The position numbers were made by a program, and so were the translations under genes. Positions 9,399-46,561 of a stretch of DNA of 58,419 nt are shown one piece after another. How positions within the stretch are numbered: position 1 is the first letter of the stretch; each line of letters begins with the position of its first letter. The notes beneath the pieces were generated by a model. The model searched no databases. It had not been told where the DNA came from and was given only the letters and a program-made list of their open reading frames with translations. Source of the stretch: Candidatus Micrarchaeota archaeon (GTDB taxonomy: Archaea > Micrarchaeota > Micrarchaeia > Norongarragalinales > Norongarragalinaceae); the NCBI GenBank assembly GCA_964630975.1, contig CAZVVY010000003.1, forward strand, positions 58,379 to 116,797, written 5' to 3'.

Positions 9399-10316
9399 TC
9401 AACCTTTTACTCCCGCCATTATCAACGGAAACGCAATCGTCGCATCACATTGCACGCACGCCGTACGCGCCTTTTCCTTCACTTTTCCCCAGGACACGGC
9501 TTCATTGACGCGCGCCCCGCTCAAAGAACCGTCGAACGGGGTCGCAGTGGTAACGTAGACCGCGTAATCGAATCCGCCGCGCAACAAGTTGGCCCCGATT
9601 GAAAAGTGTTTTGCCGCGCCGCCACCCAACAAAATGCCTCCCGTCTTTTCTGCGGACAACACGACGGGGGCAAGTTGCTTCAAGTCGCCCGACGCATCCA
9701 CGCCGAACTCGGGGTGCTCCTGCGAATAAAAAAACATTTGGAGGCCGAACGCCCCGTCGCAAGGCGAAGGACACGCCACAGGAATCTCGTTTTTCGCGGC
9801 CCAGTAAAGAAAAGAGTTTTCGTCTTCGATTGTCAAGCCGAGGTCGCGAATCAACTCGTTGGGTGCGAGCAACCGCCCCAACTCTTTTTGCTTGGCGAGT
9901 TCCGCGTCGAAGAAGGGCTTGAGGCGCGCCTCCAAACCCTCGTAATGCGCGTTCTTCACGAGCACGTCGCCTATGCGATTCGTTCCCTCGGCGTGCAAGG
10001 CGGCGTCGTCCCCGTTAAACGAGCCGAACTCGAAGTCGCCGAAGCACTTCATGTAATCCTCTTCAACGGACCCTATACCCGTAACCACTACGTCCACGAA
10101 TTTTTCGCGGCACAACCGCGCGAACAGCCCGCGCAACCCCGAAGAAACCATGTTGGAAGTGAACGACAAGAACACGGTTGCGCCGGCCTCCTTCATCTCC
10201 TCGATTACTTCCACGGCCTTGGCGAGCTCGCGCGCCTGAAAACCCGTGCCCTTCATTCTTCGCGCGAGTTCGGCCGCGGAAACGCCTTTTTCAACGTTCA
10301 AATCCTCAACCTTCAC
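9399..10316 (-). CDS. dys: Deoxyhypusine synthase
   Basis: TGFQA, FTSNMVSSGLR, GGGAAKH, and DGSLSGA...EAVSWGK carrying the catalytic Lys. Confidence 0.95.
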   Translation of the reverse strand: MKVEDLNVEKGVSAAELARRMKGTGFQARELAKAVEVIEEMKEAGATVFLSFTSNMVSSGLRGLFARLCREKFVDVVVTGIGSVEEDYMKCFGDFEFGSFNGDDAALHAEGTNRIGDVLVKNAHYEGLEARLKPFFDAELAKQKELGRLLAPNELIRDLGLTIEDENSFLYWAAKNEIPVACPSPCDGAFGLQMFFYSQEHPEFGVDASGDLKQLAPVVLSAEKTGGILLGGGAAKHFSIGANLLRGGFDYAVYVTTATPFDGSLSGARVNEAVSWGKVKEKARTACVQCDATIAFPLIMAGVKG

Positions 10317-11184
10317 TCCTGTTCACCGTCCTCGCAACCGCCTTGGTCGCCTTGAATTTTTTTTCGAGCCACTTCTCAACCGCCCGCGAGTCGAACGGCT
10401 TGCACGAAAACAAGTCCACGTGCGCGTTGCCGAACCGCGGGTAAGTGTGAATGCTTGCGTGGCTCTCCTTCAAAAAAACGAAGCCGGTCAATCCCTCGTC
10501 CCGCTCTTCTTTTACGCGCACCACGTGCGGCTCGCCCAACGCAGTCATCCCCGCCTTTTTCGGCGCCTCCTTCAACACGCCGTAAACCAAGTCGAAGTCG
10601 TCGAGGGCGCCGGGCGAACAATCGTATAAGTCGAGCAACAAGTGCGAGCCCGTTTGTCCCGGCAAATCCTTGAAGAAGCGCGGCCCGGCCCGGCCCACGA
10701 ACTGGTAGGCGACGTCAAAACAAAGCAAGCCGAAGAAGTAAGCCCATTCCCCGCTCCACGCACTCAAAGCCAAGGCAGCCGCATCCGTCAACAAGCGGCG
10801 GCGCGCCACCAAACCCGAAAACCCTTTTTTACCCGCGAAGGAGTCGTTCAATTTTTCGTCGGCCGCACCGGCGACGAGCAATACCGCCAAAAAAGAAACG
10901 TTGACCGCGGGCAAACCGTAAAAAGCGATTACGGCGAACAAGGCGGCCAACGCGAACTGGTGGGCGCGCTTATCTATTTTTCCGCCCAACAAAACGCCCA
11001 CGGTTATTGCGAGAATCAAGGTCGCAAAAGGCGTTGAAAGCGAGGCAACAAAGCCGGCAACGGTTCCGTACAACGCGCCCGAAAAAAATTGAAGGTTTTT
11101 GTAAACGAATAATTTTTCGTCGACCTGCAAGTCGGTGAGCTTTGCAAGCAGCCCTGCTAAAAAGCACGATAAGTATTCAAACAC
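10306..11184 (-). CDS. speD: Fusion of an N-terminal multi-TM domain with a C-terminal pyruvoyl-dependent S-adenosylmethionine-decarboxylase-family domain
   Basis: C-terminal G.HLLLDLYDC...GLTGFVFLKE|SHASIHTYP...VDLFSC; the preceding ~170 aa are hydrophobic helices; GTG start; overlaps the dys start. Confidence 0.85.
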   Translation of the reverse strand: MFEYLSCFLAGLLAKLTDLQVDEKLFVYKNLQFFSGALYGTVAGFVASLSTPFATLILAITVGVLLGGKIDKRAHQFALAALFAVIAFYGLPAVNVSFLAVLLVAGAADEKLNDSFAGKKGFSGLVARRRLLTDAAALALSAWSGEWAYFFGLLCFDVAYQFVGRAGPRFFKDLPGQTGSHLLLDLYDCSPGALDDFDLVYGVLKEAPKKAGMTALGEPHVVRVKEERDEGLTGFVFLKESHASIHTYPRFGNAHVDLFSCKPFDSRAVEKWLEKKFKATKAVARTVNRSEG

Positions 11185-11278
11185 GTTCCATTACCTGAAA
11201 AAGAGGGCGTTCGCTGGATTGAAGTATCACGGGCAATCCTTTTTAGCGAAACGCATAAAAGAAAGTGTTTAGCCGCCT

Positions 11279-11899
11279 TTAAAATCGTAGCGAAACCACG
11301 AACAGGAACGTCGCCCACAACAAGCCCAGCGGCAAGCCGCCCGCGGCCTTGGCAGCCAAATAAAAAAATTTTGAAACAACGTAAAGCAGGAGCCAGGGAA
11401 CGAACAACAACGCGAAAACGAGTTTGTCCAGAAGCGACTTCGACAACAATTTTTTGGCGGGCCACGCCGCCGCGTCAACAAAGAAATTCGCGTAATCAAC
11501 CCAGCTCGGCACTGCCGACAAGGCAATGGAGCAAGCCGCGTAAAACAGGAAGGCACCGGCAACCCGGTAAGGGCCCGACAACAACGGGTAAGAAGAGTCG
11601 AACAAGGCGAGCGCCAAAAAGCTGGACAACAACAGGGGCGCGAAGTGCACCAAGGCAAGCGACCAAATCGAGGTCTTGAAGCGGTCGTACTCGAAATGAA
11701 GTTCCCCGTAATTATCGCCGGCCAACGAAAACCAAACGACTTTCCTCGGAGCCAGCCCCGCGGCAACAACCGCCAAATAATGCGCCAACTCGTGGGCTAC
11801 TACGCCCGGAAAAAGCAGTAACGCGTACGCGTAAGCGGGCAAAAGCCCTTTCCCCGCCGCCTTCACTACTCCAACGCGCGCCTTCGCCGATTCGCTCAT
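11279..11899 (-). CDS. Membrane zinc metalloprotease-like protein (M50/zincin-like)
   Basis: PGVVAHELAH (HExxH) inside a hydrophobic segment, followed by AP and PSxxD motifs. Confidence 0.7.
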   Translation of the reverse strand: MSESAKARVGVVKAAGKGLLPAYAYALLLFPGVVAHELAHYLAVVAAGLAPRKVVWFSLAGDNYGELHFEYDRFKTSIWSLALVHFAPLLLSSFLALALFDSSYPLLSGPYRVAGAFLFYAACSIALSAVPSWVDYANFFVDAAAWPAKKLLSKSLLDKLVFALLFVPWLLLYVVSKFFYLAAKAAGGLPLGLLWATFLFVVSLRF

Positions 11900-11913: not shown

Positions 11914-11929
11914 GGGAAAAGCGTTTAAA
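11914..11929. promoter_or_regulatory. Bidirectional BRE/TATA (TTTAAA) serving the divergent protease gene and the thrS leader
   Basis: Palindromic TTTAAA at 11924-11929 lies 25 nt from both ATG 11899 (-) and ATG 11954 (+), the spacing expected for leaderless archaeal transcripts. Confidence 0.6.
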
Positions 11930-11953
11930 CCGTTTTCCACAAGATTAATGGTG

Positions 11954-11986
11954 ATGAAAACAGTTTCAAGCACTACGACGACCTGA
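11954..11986 (+). CDS. Putative threonine-rich leader peptide (uORF) MKTVSSTTTT*
   Basis: ATG AAA ACA GTT TCA AGC ACT ACG ACG ACC TGA: 5 of 10 codons are Thr, 4 consecutive; 77 nt upstream of thrS. An in-frame ATG also exists at 11948. Confidence 0.7.
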   Translation: MKTVSSTTTT

Positions 11987-11995
11987 TGTTCTTAC

Positions 11996-12052
11996 TCGCG
12001 GGACTGCCTGGCGCGTGGCCCCGCGACCGGCCGAAAAAAACGTTTTGGGAGG
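11996..12052 (+). promoter_or_regulatory. thrS leader hairpin and RBS
   Basis: TCGCGGG (11996-12002) pairs with CCCGCGA (12020-12026), with an inner GCC/GGC pair; RBS GGGAGG at 12047-12052. Confidence 0.6.
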
Positions 12053-12063
12053 ATTGAATTAAA

Positions 12064-13956
12064 ATGAAGTTATTGGAGTTGCACTGCGACTACATCGAGT
12101 ACAAGCCGGGAAAAAAGGCGTTGAAGAGCGCGCCCGAGTTGAGCGAAGAAGAAAAAGAGGGCGCCAGAATGGAGGAAGCCCTCGCCGTGTTCACCACTTT
12201 TGAAAAGGGCGACGACGAGTCCGTGGCCGACCAAGCCGCCGAACAAGTGAAAAAGAATTTCGGGGAAGTCAAGGCGCAAGCCGTAATGGTTTACCCGTAC
12301 GCGCACTTGTCGCACGACTTGGCGGACCCCGCCACCGCCACGCGCCTCCTCGAATACTTTTACGAAAAGGTTTTGGAGTTCGCCCCGAAATCCAAGAAAA
12401 GCGTTTTCGGGTATTACAAGGCGTTCGCCTTGAAGTGCAAGGGCCACCCCCTCGCCGAGTTAAGCAAGTCGTTCCACAAGACGGCCGAGGAACTCGGCGA
12501 AAAAAAAGAGTTCAAGAAAGAGTGCAAGGAAGATTTAAAGGCGGCCGACTCGGCTTCATTGAAGGCCGAGGAAAAGGCGAAGCGCCGCTTCCTCGTGCTC
12601 ACCCCGGAAGGCCGAATGGTTGACGCACAAGAATTCGATTACGGCGAGTGGAAGGACCTCAAAAAGTTTGCGGGCTACGAAATAAGCAAGGACCGCGTTT
12701 ACGCCGAGGAGCCGCCGCACATCCAAATGATGAAGGACCACGGCTTGTGCCAGTACGAGCCGGGCAGCGACGCAGGCAACTTCAGGTGGCCCCCGAAAGG
12801 CCGCCTCGTGAAAAAGCTGTTGGAAAAAGACATTACCGACTACTGCGTGGATTACGGCGCAATGGAAGTCGAAACCCCGATAATGTACGACTTCGAACAC
12901 CCCACCCTCAAAAAATACTTGAACCGATTTCCGGCAAGGCAATACGTGGTCAAAAGCGACGAAAAAGAGTTTTTCCTGCGCTTCGCCGCGTGCTTCGGCC
13001 AATTCCTGTTAAAGCACGACATGGTTATGTCTTACAAGAGCCTGCCCCTCAAAATGGTGGAGTTGACGCGCTACTCTTTCCGCCGCGAACAAACCGGGGA
13101 ACTCTCCGGCCTCAAGCGATTGCGCGCCTTCACGATGCCGGACATGCACACTTTGTGCGCCGACTTGGAGGGGGCGCGAAAAGAGTTCGGCGAACAATTC
13201 GACAAGTGTTTCGACTGGCTGACCGCGCTAGGCATACCTTTTGAAGCAGGCTTCCGAGTTCAAACGTCTTTCTTCGAGGAAAACAAGGATTTCTACTTGC
13301 GTATGGTGAAGCGGCTCGGCAAACCCGTGTTGCTGGAATTGTTCGACGAGCGCTACGCGTACTTCATAACCAAGTTCGAGTTCAACTTCGTGGACGCGAT
13401 GAGCAAGGCGAGCGCGCTCAGCACCGTGCAAATCGACGTGGAAAACGCGGACACCTACGACTTGTGGTTCACCGCCGAAGACGGCTCAAAAAAGCGGCCC
13501 GTCATCCTGCACGCTTCGTTGAGCGGCAGCGTTGAACGCGTTATTTACGCCTTGCTGGAAAACGAGTACTTGAAGTCCAAGCGCGGAAAAAAGCCGGTGC
13601 TTCCCGCGTGGCTCTCCCCCACGCAAGTTCGCCTCGTGCCCGTCAGCGACAAGCACAACGAGTACTGCGAGTCCCTCCTCGAACGATTCGAGGGGGTGCG
13701 CGTCGACTTGGACGACCGCAACGAAACGCTGGGCAAGAAAGTGCGCGAAGCCGAAAAGAATTGGGTGCCGTTCGTCGCCGTAATCGGCGACAAGGAAAAA
13801 GAGTCCGGCAAGCTCGCCGTAACAATGCGCGCCACCGGAGAAAAAAAGGAGTTGTCACCCGCGGAATTACGCGAACTCGTGAAAAAAGAATGCGAAGGGC
13901 GTGCTTTTGAAAAGCTTAGCTTGCCCGCGCGCCTGAGCAAGCGCCCCGTGTTCTGA
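12064..13956 (+). CDS. thrS: Threonyl-tRNA synthetase, archaeal type with N-terminal editing domain
   Basis: MK.L.LHCDY, YPYAHLS, LRFAACFG, YSFRREQ.GEL.GL.RLRAFTMPD.H, and the anticodon-binding domain. Confidence 0.98.
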   Translation: MKLLELHCDYIEYKPGKKALKSAPELSEEEKEGARMEEALAVFTTFEKGDDESVADQAAEQVKKNFGEVKAQAVMVYPYAHLSHDLADPATATRLLEYFYEKVLEFAPKSKKSVFGYYKAFALKCKGHPLAELSKSFHKTAEELGEKKEFKKECKEDLKAADSASLKAEEKAKRRFLVLTPEGRMVDAQEFDYGEWKDLKKFAGYEISKDRVYAEEPPHIQMMKDHGLCQYEPGSDAGNFRWPPKGRLVKKLLEKDITDYCVDYGAMEVETPIMYDFEHPTLKKYLNRFPARQYVVKSDEKEFFLRFAACFGQFLLKHDMVMSYKSLPLKMVELTRYSFRREQTGELSGLKRLRAFTMPDMHTLCADLEGARKEFGEQFDKCFDWLTALGIPFEAGFRVQTSFFEENKDFYLRMVKRLGKPVLLELFDERYAYFITKFEFNFVDAMSKASALSTVQIDVENADTYDLWFTAEDGSKKRPVILHASLSGSVERVIYALLENEYLKSKRGKKPVLPAWLSPTQVRLVPVSDKHNEYCESLLERFEGVRVDLDDRNETLGKKVREAEKNWVPFVAVIGDKEKESGKLAVTMRATGEKKELSPAELRELVKKECEGRAFEKLSLPARLSKRPVF

Positions 13957-37875: not shown

Positions 37876-39513
37876 TCAAAAGCCACCCATTCCTCCGGGC
37901 ATTCCGCCTTCGCCGCCGGGCGACGGGGGCTTGCCCCTTGCCGCGATGATGTCGTCGATTCGCAAAATCATTTCGGCGACTTCGCTCGCGCTTTGAATGG
38001 CTTGCCTCTTGATTTTCAAGGGCTCGATTACTTCCTTGGACAAGTCGCCCAACCCGGCGCCGTAAACGTTTACGCCGAACCCGGAAACGGACTCGTGCTT
38101 GTTGCGCAACTCCACGATTGCGTCAATCGAGTCCAAACCGCAGGACTCGGCGAGCGTGCGCGGAATCACTTCCAGCGCTTCGGCGAACGCTTGAATCGCG
38201 AGCTGTTCCCTTCCGCCCACTTCAACCGCGTGCTTGCGCAGCTTCATCGACAAATCCATTTCAATGCTTCCGCCGCCGACCACGTAGTGGCCTTCCTCGA
38301 TTGCCGAGGAAACCGCTCCGATTGCGTCGTCAATCGCCCTTTCGGCCTCGTCTATTACGTGTTCGGTTCCCCCGCGCACCAGCAAGGTAACGCTTTTCGG
38401 CTCCTTGCAGTCCTCAACGAAAACCATTTCGTCTCCGGCCACCTTGCGCTCTTCCACGAGCCCGGCCGACCCGAGATCTTCCGAACTCAAGTCGTCCAAC
38501 GTCGTGACTACGCGGGCGCCCGTTGCGCGCGAAAGCTTCTTCATATCACTCTTCTTTACGCGGCGGCACGCGAGAACTCCTTTCTTGGACAAATAGTGTT
38601 GGGCGACGTCATCCACTCCCTTTTGGCAGAACAACACGTTGCAGCCGCTGGCCGCAATCTTGTCCACCATTTCGCGCAACATTTTTTCTTCTTGCTCGAG
38701 GAACGCCGTCATTTGCTCGGGCGAAGTAATGTTGATGCGCGCGTCCGTCTCCGTCTTCTCGATTTCGAGGGCCGCGTCAATCAAGGCGACCTTGGCGCTT
38801 TCAACGCGCTTCGGCATTCCGGGGTGAACCACTTCCTTGTCAACCAGGACCCCGCGAATCAACTCGGTTTCGGTGACGCTGTTGCCCTGCTTCTTCTCAA
38901 CCTTGATTAATTCCTTGTCAACGAGGTTGTGGTTTTCGCCTTCCGCGACCTGCGTAACCGCGTCCACTACGAGCTTCGACAAGTATTCCTTGGCGCGGCC
39001 CGCGGCAACCGTCTTCGAACCCATGCTGATTCCGGCGATTCGCTCCAATTCCTCCTTGTCTTTTGGCGAAACCTCGGTGCAAGACTCGTTCAAGTAATCC
39101 ATACACTTTTCGGCAGCCATCTTGTACCCGGAAACAATGGTCGAAGCATGAATGTTTTGGTCCAAGAGCTCCAACGCCTTCTTCAAGAGTTCGCCCGATA
39201 TTACGACTGCGCTGGTCGTGCCGTCGCCGACTTCCTCGTCCTGCGTCTTCGAAATCTCGACCATCATCTTGGCGGCGGGGTGCTCGACATTCATTTCCTT
39301 GAGGATGGTGGCTCCGTCGTTCGTAATCACGATGTCCCCCAAGTCGGAAACCATCATTTTATCCATTCCGCGCGGGCCCAACGTGCTCTTGACCGCGCTT
39401 GCAACCGCGTAACCCACGGCTATGTTGGTTCTTTGCGCGTCACGGCCGAGAAGCCGCGAGCTCCCTTCGGGGAGCATTACCACTTGTTGTCCTCTCAGTT
39501 GCCCTTCATTCAT
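37876..39513 (-). CDS. ths: Thermosome (group II chaperonin) subunit
   Basis: [28 protein letters not shown] tail. Confidence 0.98.
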
Positions 39514-39646
39514 TTTTCAATTCCACCTCTAATAATCAACTTCATTAAAATACGCTCTATACGTGTTATAAACTAGTGAAACCCTTTATTTAACCCTTAC
39601 CCAAAAACGATTTTTTCAAGGGAAAAAATTCACTGGTGAAACGAAG

Positions 39647-43439: not shown

Positions 43440-43596
43440 TGCCGGAGGCGGGATTCTCACTGCCTTTCTTTTTCGTCGACGTTTTTCTTTCGCGAAAGAA
43501 AAAGGTCGGTTTGAACCCGCGACTTCCAGATTTCCCGAGCACCTAATTCGGTTCGCGTATGAGTCTGGCGCTCTAACCAGTCTGAGCTACTCCGGC
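43440..43596 (-). tRNA. Elongator tRNA-Met(CAT) with two introns: 37/38 (43532-43557, 26 nt) and 59/60 (43454-43509, 56 nt)
   Basis: Acceptor GCCGGAG/CTCCGGC; anticodon stem CCAGA/TCTGG; spliced T arm GCGGG-TTCAAAT-CCCGC; second intron has a TTCA/TGAG helix with AAC and AAT bulges. Confidence 0.9.
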
Positions 43597-43627
43597 ACCG
43601 CGTCTCTATTATTGGCGGCAAAGTTCT

Positions 43628-46237
43628 TTAAAGGGCTTGCTTTTTTCCGCGGGCGAACTTGGGCGAGCCGCCGCCTTTCGCCCCGCTTTCATTCAACAAC
43701 CGGGCGGCGTCGCGCTCGCTTTTCTCGGCGCAGGCGACAACCGTGAACCCGGACTCGTTCCACAAAACGCAGTCCCTTCCTTTGGCCGCGCACTCCGTCG
43801 CGATTTTTTGCAGGGTTGCCGCGTCGAACGACAACTCTTTTTTGACGACGCCTTCACCGCTTTTCGCCAATTCCCCTGCTTCCTCGCGCGCAATCACTTC
43901 CGAACATTTCTCCAGTTTTTTGCCGCGTTCCTTCCACTCGTCGAACAAGCGGCCGATTGCGTTGACGAGGTCCACCTTGCTCACGTTGAGTCGGGCGCAA
44001 GCGTCTTCGAGGATTAACTGGTTTTCGCGCACTTTTTCGAGTGCCGCGGGCCCGGCCGCGTAGCGCAGGCGCGTAACGCCGTCCTGCACTTGTTCGGCTC
44101 CCAACAATTTTATGACTCCTATTTCACTGGTGTTCGCGCGGTGCAGTCCCCCGCACGCCTCCACGTCCACTCCTTCCACGTCGACAACGCGGATTTTCCC
44201 GCCGATTGCGCCGCCTCCCTGATACAAGCGGAACCCGTACTTTTTTTCGGCTTCGCCGCGGTCCATCTCGGTTACGGTAACCGGGCGCGCCTCCAAAACG
44301 AATTGGTTCGCCTTCTCCTCTATCAACGACAATTGGTCGCGCGACGGCTTCTCGTAATGCGTCAAGTCGAGGTGCGCCTCGCCCTCCTCCTTCTTACTGC
44401 CGCACTGCCAAACGTGGGGGCCGAGGACTTCGCGCGCCGCCGCGTTAACGCAGTGGGTCGCGGTGTGGTGGCGCGTCAAAGCGTCCCTCCTCTTCTCATC
44501 GATTTTCAAGCGCACTTTCTGGCCCTTCTTGAACGTCTTGGCTAGGGGAGTGTAATGCAGTATTACGCCGCCCTTTTTTTGCGCGTCTTCTACGCGCGCG
44601 TCGTCGATGAAGCCGCGGTCCCCGCACTGGCCGCCTCCTTCCGGGTAAAAAATGGTTTTGTCCAGCGCTATTGCGTCGTCGAAGACCTGCACTATTTTAG
44701 CGTCCAACTCGGTTTTGGCGGGGCAACCATAGTAAGCGGGCTCGGTGGGTTTCGCCTTCAATTCCACCTTATCCTCCCCCTTTTTTTCCTCCATCACGTG
44801 CTTGGAAGTGATTTTGGAGTAGAACCCGGCGGGCGCCTCGGCTTCCGAGCCGCACTCCTTGGCTACGGCTTCCAACAATTCAGGGGTTACGCCGTGCGAC
44901 TCGTATAGCGTCGCCATTTGCTTCTCTGAAATGCTTCCGTTCTTGACGGCCGAAGAACACTTTTGGCGCGCCTTCTTCAAGCTTTCCCCGTACTTTTTTT
45001 CTTCGTTTTCGAGTATGGGGTGAATCCAATCCAACGCCTCTTCAAGTTCGGGCCACAACGGCTTCAAGTCGCGCGCGTGCATCTCGAAGAGCTTCACGTA
45101 ATCGTCGGCCAGCGAGTAGCGCTGGTTGAATGCGAGTGCGCGCCTGAACAAAACGCGGAGGTTGTAACCGCCCGCCGTGTTCGAGGGCAGGCCGCCGTCC
45201 GCCAACGCGAACAACAGCGAGCGCGCGTGGTCGGCTACGGCGTAAACGGCTTGAAGAGGCGCGATTTCTTGCTCCATTTCCTTTAAAGAAATGCCGAGCA
45301 TTCCCGCAATCCTTTTCTTCTCTTCCTTGAACGGCTTTTCGCCGTCCACGTCAAGCGACGAACTGATGCGGTTGTATTTGCGCGTCAAATCCGTGTCTTG
45401 AATGCCGGCGTGCTTCTTTAGGTATGCGACTTCGCGGGGAAAGGAAGCCTCGTAAATGGTTTGGTCTCCGCGGTAATACCAGAGCAAGCGCTCGAATCCC
45501 CAGCCCACGTCTATTACGCGGAGCGGCAGTTCCTTTCGGCCGCCATCCCAATAATATTGCATGAAAACGCTGTTTACCAACTCACTGCCTTTGGCGAACG
45601 ACTCGATGCACGGGCCGAACGCGGAAAAGTCGGGGAGCGCCCAAACGTCTTCGCCGTAAGTCAACTCCTCTTTTTTTATGCCGAGCACTTTCGTCAAAAA
45701 CCCGTAGTTGAGTTCGATGCATTCGTCGCGCCAGTAACCTTCTTCGCCGAAGGCGTGCTGGCCCGCCATCATGAAGCCGCTCAAGTGCCTGCCCGTAACC
45801 CCTATGTTGGCTATGTCGGGGAAGCGGAGGCAGGGTTGGGGGACGACGAGCGGGTTGGACGGGTACTCGAAGACGACGCGCCCGTTTTCAAGGCGCTGGA
45901 AGTCGACTATGCTGGCAATAGTGTAATACAAGTCGTTGCGCCAGCGCGAAATCACGGGGTAGCGCGGCACTACGTCGTGGCCGTTCTTGGAAAAAAACGA
46001 GGAGAACTTCTTCCAGAAAGAGGCGTACGACTCGTCGCGCGGCTTGTCCCTGAAAAACGAGTATTCCTCGTGTTCGGAGTCGCCGCACGAATGCGTTTCC
46101 GAAGCCGACCAAAAACCCTTCCCGCACTTTTCGCAGACGCGGTGCTCGAATCCCTCTCGCTCGAACAAGGGCACTTCATAGTGTTCGGCGTAATCCTTTG
46201 CAAACTTTTTTCGCAGGAGCGCCTTGGAAACTTCCAT
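43628..46237 (-). CDS. alaS: Alanyl-tRNA synthetase, archaeal type
   Basis: HDVVPRYPV..RWR.D.Y.TIASI.DFQ, ID.GWGFER, editing motifs HHTATH and CGG.H, C-terminal GGG. Start reassigned to ATG 46237. Confidence 0.97.
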   Translation of the reverse strand: MEVSKALLRKKFAKDYAEHYEVPLFEREGFEHRVCEKCGKGFWSASETHSCGDSEHEEYSFFRDKPRDESYASFWKKFSSFFSKNGHDVVPRYPVISRWRNDLYYTIASIVDFQRLENGRVVFEYPSNPLVVPQPCLRFPDIANIGVTGRHLSGFMMAGQHAFGEEGYWRDECIELNYGFLTKVLGIKKEELTYGEDVWALPDFSAFGPCIESFAKGSELVNSVFMQYYWDGGRKELPLRVIDVGWGFERLLWYYRGDQTIYEASFPREVAYLKKHAGIQDTDLTRKYNRISSSLDVDGEKPFKEEKKRIAGMLGISLKEMEQEIAPLQAVYAVADHARSLLFALADGGLPSNTAGGYNLRVLFRRALAFNQRYSLADDYVKLFEMHARDLKPLWPELEEALDWIHPILENEEKKYGESLKKARQKCSSAVKNGSISEKQMATLYESHGVTPELLEAVAKECGSEAEAPAGFYSKITSKHVMEEKKGEDKVELKAKPTEPAYYGCPAKTELDAKIVQVFDDAIALDKTIFYPEGGGQCGDRGFIDDARVEDAQKKGGVILHYTPLAKTFKKGQKVRLKIDEKRRDALTRHHTATHCVNAAAREVLGPHVWQCGSKKEEGEAHLDLTHYEKPSRDQLSLIEEKANQFVLEARPVTVTEMDRGEAEKKYGFRLYQGGGAIGGKIRVVDVEGVDVEACGGLHRANTSEIGVIKLLGAEQVQDGVTRLRYAAGPAALEKVRENQLILEDACARLNVSKVDLVNAIGRLFDEWKERGKKLEKCSEVIAREEAGELAKSGEGVVKKELSFDAATLQKIATECAAKGRDCVLWNESGFTVVACAEKSERDAARLLNESGAKGGGSPKFARGKKQAL

Positions 46238-46272: not shown

Positions 46273-46561
46273 CGGGCGGGCGGGTCGTAGTCCACCTTTT
46301 GTTGTCCACGGCATTGGACTGAGCGGCTCAAAGGCCTTGCACTCCATCGCCGGGCGCGAAGCCGTTTCAGCCCCGGAAACCCGGAACGTCCCCCTCAACG
46401 GGTTCACCCTGTTTTACGGGAAGGGTATCGTTTCTGCTCCCCGCGCCTGCGCCCTAAACGCTTTCACTCGCGTGAACGGCTCAAACGGAGTGGGTGGAAC
46501 TTCCCCATCGCCCCCGCGTTTGACCGCGAAGGCAACGACGGCCGTGCACCCGCGCCGCCCG
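46273..46561 (-). ncRNA. rnpB: RNase P RNA
   Basis: P4 pseudoknot halves GGAAGT(T)CCACC and AAAAGGTGGACT with bulged U; P1 CGGGCGG-GCGGGT/ACCCGC-CCGCCCG; P2 CACGGC/GCCGTG; internal AGAAAC, TGAAACGG and GTGCAAG motifs. Confidence 0.88.

Follow-up and report, generated by a model that had tools for sequence, protein, structure and literature searches.

The 58,419-nt stretch of DNA analysed here (the window) is part of contig CAZVVY010000003.1 of a Candidatus Micrarchaeota archaeon (assembly GCA_964630975.1) and carries thrS, the gene for an archaeal-type threonyl-tRNA synthetase (ThrRS) that includes the archaeal editing domain (tRNA-Thr_ED). Our subject is the leader lying between thrS and a TATA box shared with a divergent gene, in which a threonine-rich open reading frame (ORF) of ten codons, the mini-ORF, is followed by a stable hairpin, called H below. 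The box, the mini-ORF, the hairpin, the A7 and T4 runs, the ribosome-binding site and thrS had been listed in a preliminary description of this DNA, and all of them were found where it had placed them, as was the equal distance of the box from the two divergent starts (24 nt to the ATG at 11899 and 24 nt to the ATG at 11954). The locus is laid out as follows.

11914..11937: bidirectional promoter P1, with the TATA hexamer TTTAAA at 11924-11929 inside the near-palindrome GAAAAGCG-TTTAAA-CCGTTTTC and with A-rich flanks resembling a B recognition element on both sides
11954-11986, plus strand: leader ORF encoding MKTVSSTTTT and a stop (ATG AAA ACA GTT TCA AGC ACT ACG ACG ACC TGA), putatively leaderless
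11987..11995, plus strand: pyrimidine-rich spacer TGTTCTTAC, 9 nt from the stop codon to the hairpin
11996..12026, plus strand: hairpin H, with arms TCGCGGG (11996-12002) and CCCGCGA (12020-12026) and apical loop UGGCG (12009-12013)
12027..12052, plus strand: region holding A7 (12034-12040), T4 (12043-12046) and the Shine-Dalgarno (SD) sequence GGGAGG (12047-12052)
12064-13956, plus strand: thrS, archaeal-type threonyl-tRNA synthetase of 630 aa, with Pfam domains PF08915 (tRNA-Thr_ED), PF00587 (tRNA-synt_2b) and PF03129 (HGTP_anticodon)
11279..11899, minus strand: divergent gene of 206 aa without a Pfam family, leaderless from the box at 11924-11929, its ATG at 11899 lying 24 nt from the box

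Threonine takes five of the nine internal codons of the mini-ORF, i.e., an ACA (11960-11962) and four consecutive codons, ACT ACG ACG ACC (11972-11983), which abut the stop codon TGA (11984-11986). The first base of its ATG (11954) lies 25 nt past the last base of the box, with 24 nt between them. Hairpin H has 11-12 pairs in the window and 13 in the consensus, its conserved apical motif GCCTGGCGCGTGG spans 12006-12018, and its folding energy is -16.8 kcal/mol in the window and -11.5 to -20.5 kcal/mol across lineages; the whole 126-nt leader folds no better than shuffles (z = 0.16). After H, the folds allow a weak A:U hairpin (CCGAAA/UUUUGG) that takes in part of the SD sequence GGGAGG, and, alternatively, A7, which precedes the ATG of thrS by 23 nt, could be a second TATA-like box. 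No Rfam family was found for the leader, either with a permissive threshold on the region or with the gathering threshold on the window and four related loci.

The mini-ORF has no SD sequence, and its ATG stands 22-24 nt past the TATA box in every lineage that carries it (24, 22, 24, 24, 23, 24 and 22 nt in seven lineages). The same spacing recurs throughout the window, where a scan for TATA-like hexamers with an ATG 20-27 nt further on gave at least 14 starts of long genes, nearly all with a gap of 23-24 nt, and recovered among others the true starts of the genes for DNA ligase, PolB and AlaRS; leaderless mRNAs thus appear to be the rule in this genome. In one relative (Micrarchaeota UBA95, ThrRS 80%; locus L001, the loci used for comparison being designated by L numbers), the conserved block ggggaaagcgTTTAAAccgttttc sits 25 nt before thrS, which is itself leaderless there, so that the box would fire towards thrS; the block, ggggaaa(a)gcgTTTAAAccgttttc, has been retained in L001 although the four-fold sites of thrS differ by 52%. 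The spacing shared with at least 14 genes of the window and the position of the box in L001 make it very probable that the mini-ORF is leaderless, as the preliminary description had supposed, with transcription likely starting at or next to A11954.

Conservation of the leader among Micrarchaeota

The leader of the window is one example of a module shared by seven lineages of Micrarchaeota, some of them interrelated, whose ThrRS are 55-97% identical. Upstream of thrS, all seven have a TATA box, 22-24 nt, an ATG and an ORF of 10-18 codons with a Thr run near its end, followed, 12-15 nt from the last Thr codon, by a hairpin whose stem covaries and whose loop, YGGNN, is conserved. The leader of L161/L162 (ThrRS 97%) is the same as that of the window, and a short ATG frame 22-24 nt past a TTTAAA-type box is also found in more distant genomes that share the synteny DS, AdoMetDC, thrS, L11 (AdoMetDC, S-adenosylmethionine decarboxylase). 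Thr-rich ORFs homologous to that of the window are present in L161, L082, L167, L164, L024, L102, L039 and L178, and those outside L161 encode the following peptides, each ending at a stop codon.

L082: MSNRWIACTTTTRFQ
L164: MDSQETGTATTR
L167: MSKRLAAATTRLF
L024 (ThrRS 55-58%): MYTGSFGSIGSTGNTTTC
L102 (ThrRS 55-58%): MYGGSFGSIGSTGNTTTC
L039 (ThrRS 55-58%): MPKAKSTKRITETTTY
L178: TTAAAA, 24 nt, ATG ... MDGKSERTVASVTGTTTA

The last of these loci, L178, belongs to the same clade as L024, L102 and L039; it was fetched later as a test of the prediction, and the full module was present. The Thr-rich frame with third-position variation and a covarying hairpin, which the preliminary description had proposed to look for upstream of thrS in other Micrarchaeota, was borne out in seven lineages. 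Outside the module-bearing clade, Thr runs show no general enrichment in 140-145 distinct thrS upstream regions, and the short upstream ORFs of 145 such regions have 5.8% Thr, which is background. A clade-profile protein search gave no further cluster representatives, with cluster members having identical leaders only, and a covariance model of H, applied to all 179 loci and to the window, added nothing to the members seen by eye apart from a weak match in L178. Two candidates were left as doubtful: L171 (MRNRTLTRLH), whose ORF is not at the leaderless distance and has no hairpin match, and L087 (MSKGTETVTFTIFSRY).

Over the seven lineages, 30 of the 95 internal codons encode Thr; when the nucleotides of each ORF are shuffled, the mean is 7.9 and the maximum in 20,000 shuffles is 20. 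The Thr share in the long genes of the window is 4.4% of codons, and the shuffled nucleotides of the window ORF alone yield five or more Thr codons in 0.08% of trials. The AC dinucleotides of these ORFs are distributed over the frames as 30:2:0, i.e., 30 of 32 lie in the frame of the ATG, 13 of them outside the ACTAC core. ORF lengths vary by whole codons (10-18), peptide conservation is limited to the Thr residues, and the terminal Thr runs vary at the third position (ACT ACG ACG ACC; ACG ACG ACT ACG; ACT ACT ACC; ACG ACT ACT; ACC ACT ACT). Such patterns suggest that the mini-ORF is translated.

Hairpin H is conserved as a structure. RNAalifold on six lineages gives 12 pairs, six of them with compensatory changes, and when a 13-pair helix is specified on a seven-sequence alignment, 90.8% of cells are paired and 7 of the 13 pairs have changed on both sides; these pairing values were reached by none of 500 shuffles, and slid-partner controls gave 28-49%. 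The stem sequences have been replaced between lineages (UCGCGGG/CCCGCGA, GGAAUCC/GGAUUCC, GCAUC/GGUGC), and the apex has been retained (G.U, C-G and the loop YGGNN, UGGCG in the window). A covariance model of H has a single match in the window (11993-12030, E = 6e-11) and matches once per genome, upstream of thrS only. The distance from the last Thr codon to the base of H is nearly constant—12, 13, 13, 12, 13 and 15 nt in six lineages, 12 in the window—though that codon lies 0-3 codons before the stop, and the alignments identify ttttatc (L024) and tttaatc (L039) as homologous to the spacer TGTTCTTAC of the window. On the 3' side of H, an A-run followed 2-8 nt later by a U-run is present in five of seven lineages, with U4 in the window and L178 and U5-U6 in L024, L102 and L039.

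Divergence is unevenly distributed around this module. When the window is compared with L161, thrS differs at 38 of its 249 four-fold sites (15%). The leader, counted as 140 nt from the box up to the ATG of thrS, shows a single substitution (a Val-to-Ile change in the ORF) and two homopolymer indels of one A each, with zero substitutions between the box and the mini-ORF ATG and three in 24 nt on the other side of the box. Between L024 and L102, four-fold sites differ by 33% and the stretch from the box through the hairpin by ~4%, with free divergence 3' of the hairpin. These comparisons indicate that the whole leader is under strong purifying selection.

Such conservation bears on the idea that the ORF is a chance frame or a relic, e.g., an old thrS start ATG followed by ACG/ACT repeats that arose by slippage. 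L001, the closest genome relative, lacks the element and has its thrS ATG at the position of the ATG of the window's upstream ORF (uORF), ACGACGAC is a trinucleotide repeat, and Thr is at background (5.8%) in the short upstream ORFs of 145 distinct thrS upstream regions, all of which would suit that idea. It is nevertheless hardly credible, given that seven lineages keep the module despite a difference of 59-72% at the four-fold sites of thrS between the main clades, where synonymous sites are saturated or nearly so, that the leader has near-zero divergence at 15% synonymous divergence, that the hairpin covaries and that the prediction made for L178 held. Because L001 has neither the mini-ORF nor the hairpin, the leader of the window was initially read as a 110-nt insertion (a mobile element or a duplication) with the uORF ATG as a relic thrS start; wider sampling reversed this reading, which was rejected since distant lineages carry the module.

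The gene on the far side of the module varies by lineage (the 206-aa ORF, the AdoMetDC uORF described below, an AP endonuclease or a 257-aa ORF), whereas thrS is always immediately downstream and co-oriented. This argues against an independent small transcription unit, made up of P1, the small ORF, the hairpin and a U-run terminator, that would encode a micro-protein or a small RNA and take no part in the cis-control of thrS. Tracts of the U5-U6 type do end the module in L024, L102 and L039 (U4 in L178), and in all four a further 40-170 nt with a TATA-like box separate it from thrS, as such a unit would predict; but nothing intervenes between the module and the thrS SD sequence in the window, and the peptide is unconserved apart from its Thr residues, which leaves an independent unit improbable.

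A second conserved leaderless uORF lies on the minus strand at 11227-11256, before the S-adenosylmethionine decarboxylase gene (SAMDC or AdoMetDC; 10306-11184, minus strand), with a TATA sequence TTTTAA at 11279-11284. It reads ATG CGT TTC GCT AAA AAG GAT TGC CCG TGA in the window, i.e., MRFAKKDCP and a stop, and is present in L001, L082, L161, L163, L164 and L167, with a peptide conserved through synonymous changes (MRFAKKDCP in L001, MHYAKKDCP in L082, MCCAKKDCP in L167, (GTG)KAAKKECP in L163 and MRSAKKNCP in L164). In L082, L167 and L163 this uORF uses the palindromic box of the Thr-rich ORF (where present), on the opposite strand. Ending in Pro-stop, it recalls by analogy the polyamine-sensing uORF of eukaryotic SAMDC.

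Other arrangements were seen upstream of thrS. The thrS start region is apparently duplicated in L024 (2722-2790), where a sequence that can be aligned with the start of thrS in L102, ATGAGGACC..., is found at 2722 and the present ATG of thrS 66 nt beyond it, an arrangement that creates an extra uORF, MRTIWSTLRPKVPHFEEHKG, closed by a stop codon. L002 (2786-2854) and L168 (1191-1256), from another Micrarchaeota clade, have a conserved small ORF at 215-310 nt before thrS, MGEFETA(G)KKKKTKSK(R)G(S)C..., that is not Thr-rich and is unrelated to the thrS leader module. In Methanosarcinaceae (L115, L118, L120, L121, L123, L126, L133, L137, L140, L142-L144, L146, L152 and L154), the 5' region of thrS (~150 nt upstream) holds 1-5 tandem small hairpins, aCCGAA-nnnAA-TTCGGaa, ~27 nt apart and ending just before the SD sequence GGTGA; they had no Rfam match in L120 or L140, and may be a different thrS-specific leader element.

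Proposed sensing by a stalled ribosome and its alternatives

Together, these comparisons of sequence make it probable, at roughly 0.6, that thrS is preceded by a conserved cis-regulatory leader of 140 nt, which extends to the gene from the bidirectional TATA box (11924) and encodes a leaderless Thr-sensing leader peptide, with thrS presumably the gene under its control. The mRNA would begin with the AUG of the 10-codon mini-ORF, and the ribosome translating it would report the supply of charged tRNA-Thr. With little charged tRNA-Thr, the ribosome would stall on the Thr run, its leading edge abutting H, and the stall would lead to a higher yield of translatable thrS mRNA; with a good supply, it would terminate and leave, and thrS would be expressed less. 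The distance from codon to helix is constant and about the reach of the leading edge of a ribosome, so that stalling at the end of the Thr run would bring the ribosome up against the helix. The direction of the response is proposed by analogy with known leader peptides, and for the output step we prefer a shielding model, in which the stalled ribosome and the abutting hairpin would leave no naked RNA at the 5' end; the transcript would thereby be guarded against 5'-3' decay or against being terminated early, in a factor-dependent manner, at the U-rich tract downstream. A link to a host-dependent way of life, raised in the preliminary description, is speculative.

Folding was modelled in five to seven lineages for three positions of a ribosome footprint: the first Thr codon of the run, its last Thr codon and the stop. 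H is intact in both stalled states in every lineage. With the ribosome at the stop, 1-5 pairs at the base of H are frayed; L082 is the exception, as the footprint there takes in the whole 5' arm. The preliminary description had proposed that the Thr codons pair with GGCGCGT inside the hairpin and that stalling switches the fold and derepresses thrS. Neither the pairing nor the fold switch finds support: pairing of 11975-11983 with 12010-12016 yields -4.9 kcal/mol, versus -16.8 kcal/mol for H; in four of five lineages, the best duplex between the wider Thr region and the hairpin does not outperform shuffled sequence (-10.8 kcal/mol in the window); the unpaired probability of the window SD sequence stays at 0.33-0.34 in all ribosome states; and no conserved alternative helices appear.

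The same results bear on a classical attenuator, in which stalling on the Thr codons would select between exclusive folds and thereby remove a terminator or free the SD sequence. What speaks for it is a short complementarity of the ACUAC(G) core with the conserved GUGG 3' of the loop, the -10.8 kcal/mol duplex of the Thr region with the hairpin in the window, a closing helix around H that appears in L082 with the ribosome on the first Thr codon, and the A:U hairpin followed by U-rich sequence downstream in five lineages. However, Thr-region/hairpin duplexes are shuffle-like in four of five lineages, H forms in all ribosome states and lineages apart from L082 with the ribosome at the stop, the accessibility of the window SD sequence does not change, and the window has T4 only; moreover, archaeal RNA polymerase terminates without the need of hairpins. 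We regard such an attenuator as quite unlikely, and neither classical refolding nor the ribosome-binding-site unmasking scheme known from mycobacteria is supported as a mechanism by the modelled folds.

Several observations also weigh against sensing by a stalled ribosome. Besides the constant accessibility of the window SD sequence, constrained folds of four other lineages show no consistent ribosome-dependent SD unmasking, no competing second helix is found in the folds bar the lineage-specific closing helix of L082, and a 1:2 / 2:3 switch between spacer, A-run and U-run is unsupported in ribosome-masked folds. There is no convincing terminator in the window leader, which has T4 as opposed to the T5-T8 often seen where other genes of the window end. 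In all lineages, the ACTAC core is the same down to the nucleotide, so that a constraint beyond coding may act there, and L167 retains two Thr codons only and has lost the 5' arm of H. The module has been cleanly deleted in L001/L081 and in L163, losses that fall inside module-bearing clades of the ThrRS tree (in L001 the deletion may have occurred between ATGAA repeats), and it is thus dispensable. Several relatives have another TATA-like box near thrS, and some thrS transcription may therefore bypass the leader. Finally, the conserved YGGNN loop (UGGCG in the window) is left unexplained by ribosome stalling.

That loop would be accounted for if the sensor were the hairpin and not the Thr codons, i.e., if ThrRS or another protein bound the apical loop and the mini-ORF only loaded ribosomes or set basal expression. 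The apical motif GCYYGGNNNGU(G)G is indeed conserved in sequence while the stem covaries, and its 7-nt loop, reading Y-U-G-G-N-R-N, resembles an anticodon loop. Across lineages the loops are C-U-G-G-C-G-C, U-U-G-G-C-G-G, U-U-G-G-C-A-A, C-U-G-G-A-A-A and U-C-G-G-C-U-G, and the anticodon loop of tRNA-Thr from L036, for comparison, is UU-CGU-AA. The anticodon-like triplet is GGC (GGA in L082) and not NGU, and the equivalent of the U36 that defines tRNA-Thr is absent in all lineages, position 36 being C or A and never the U that a tRNA-Thr mimic requires together with G35. In L024, L102 and L039, moreover, H lies 80-180 nt before the thrS start, too far for occlusion, and the 30 Thr codons among 95 and the 30:2:0 frame bias would be left unexplained. 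A hairpin sensor is in our view unlikely, if still worth keeping in mind.

The UGG of the loop, conserved in five of six lineages, could also point to a T-box-like tRNA sensor, in which a Thr codon would pair with the anticodon of uncharged tRNA-Thr and the loop UGG with its CCA end, spacer and helix acting as a ruler; the near-constant spacing from codon to hairpin (12-15 nt) and helix length (~13 bp, 10-13) would fit. But the leader does not show the architecture of a T-box, which is defined by a Stem I with a specifier loop and by an antiterminator bulge UGGN that pairs with the NCCA end, and no Rfam family, T-box included, matched at the permissive or the gathering threshold. UGG is followed by C in most lineages, yet the one Micrarchaeota tRNA-Thr available for comparison, that of L036, appears to have discriminator U. 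A single specifier codon would moreover suffice for such a sensor, without any ATG-anchored frame; the 30:2:0 frame bias and the fixed distance from TATA box to ATG point to translation instead, and a T-box-like element is very improbable.

Returning to the stalled ribosome and the shielding model, we can formulate a bolder version. The leader would be the first archaeal amino-acid-sensing leader peptide and would work without RNA refolding, the stalled ribosome docking on a fixed hairpin and the two together hiding the nascent RNA from FttA/aCPSF1 and aRNase J so that read-through into thrS rises, and the box of L082 and L167 would also fire into a second sensory uORF, MxxAKK[DEN]CP-stop. We offer this version tentatively and hold it to be doubtful as a whole; if it were true, L082 and L167 would each have one bidirectional promoter with a ribosome-based sensor on each side.

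Other elements of the window

The preliminary description had raised the prospect of cognate-codon uORFs before other aminoacyl-tRNA synthetase (aaRS) genes; in the window there is none at MetRS, whose leader of ~54 nt contains no ATG, or at AlaRS, which is leaderless. An archaeal RNase P RNA (RF00373, 103 bits) occupies 46276-46558 on the minus strand, flanked by the promoter of the 46614 gene on one side and by the leaderless start of AlaRS (46237) on the other. A long ORF extending to 46309 was rejected as the AlaRS N-terminus, since it overlaps the RNase P RNA and the leaderless start lies at 46237. Just past the AlaRS stop, at ~43510-43600 on the minus strand, a tRNA-like sequence (GCCGGAGTAGCTCAGACTGGTTAGAGCGCCAGACTCATA...) has a CAT anticodon loop and an apparent intron or disrupted 3' half; no tRNA was called there by Rfam or by ARAGORN, in intron mode or outside it. 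A further leaderless uORF, of 11 codons, is found at 39510-39545 on the minus strand, 21 nt past a TTTATA box; within ATGA, the stop codon of this uORF shares bases with the start codon of the thermosome gene (Cpn60_TCP1, 37876-39513), whose SD sequence GAGGTGG lies inside the uORF, an arrangement that looks like termination-reinitiation coupling.

Known systems and significance

Cognate-codon leader peptides are a textbook device of Bacteria. Like the leader of the window, pheM (of Escherichia coli pheST, which encodes phenylalanyl-tRNA synthetase) and thrL (of the thr operon) have a short leader ORF with cognate codons, pheM preceding an aaRS gene and thrL having Thr codons, and the expected logic, in which starvation leads to stalling and stalling to more expression, would be shared. 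The ORFs of pheM and thrL start from an SD site inside the leader, and control relies on the exclusive helices 1:2, 2:3 and 3:4 and on a hairpin-and-U terminator of bacterial RNA polymerase. In the window, by contrast, the AUG is putatively at the 5' end of the mRNA, the folds show no alternative helices and the polymerase is archaeal, and the single stable hairpin with its conserved loop has no counterpart in pheM or thrL.

Bacterial thrS is itself controlled by RNA elements, in E. coli by a translational operator that mimics the tRNA-Thr anticodon arm and is bound by ThrRS, and in Bacillus subtilis by a T-box. The leader described here is similar in that the gene is the same and an RNA element lies in its own leader, with an anticodon-loop-like hairpin near the SD sequence in the window; unlike them, it has an ORF, neither bacterial system using a translated one. 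The preferred shielding model is closest by analogy to tnaC/Rho and to the 5' stabilisers of the ermC type, where a stalled ribosome shields RNA without refolding, and it fits because the last Thr codon lies at a constant 12-15 nt from a stable helix. To our knowledge, the archaeal counterparts, FttA/aCPSF1 and aRNase J, have no known use in ribosome-shielding control, and we know of no cognate-codon leader peptide shown in Archaea.

In the account of the mycobacterial polycysteine small ORF (Canestrari et al., 10.1101/834739), this leaderless ORF is the first cistron of its transcript, ribosome pausing on it controls the downstream genes in response to Cys, and the stalled ribosome blocks a structure that sequesters the next gene's ribosome-binding site. 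As presented there, it resembles the thrS leader in being a leaderless short ORF with a run of codons for a single amino acid (10.1101/834739). It differs in that a ribosome on the Thr codons of the thrS leader alters neither the hairpin nor SD accessibility in our folds, and in its target, which is a bacterial biosynthetic operon in the one case and an archaeal aaRS gene in the other.

As far as the open-access literature could be consulted, uORFs detected by ribosome profiling (Ribo-seq) are described in Haloferax and Methanosarcina, and no amino-acid-sensing leader peptide is assigned in Archaea. The principle is known; new are the archaeal setting, the leaderless start of the ORF, a lone hairpin that covaries and keeps its loop, and refolding that is apparently absent. 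The thrS leader is the best comparative evidence known to us that archaea may sense an amino acid via a stalling ribosome. It opens to direct testing the long-standing question of ribosome-mediated attenuation in archaea, which combine coupled transcription and translation with a eukaryote-like polymerase, and the ~110-nt cassette is transferable to genetically tractable archaea. It also suggests a way in which core genes may be regulated in DPANN archaea that have reduced genomes and few transcription factors.

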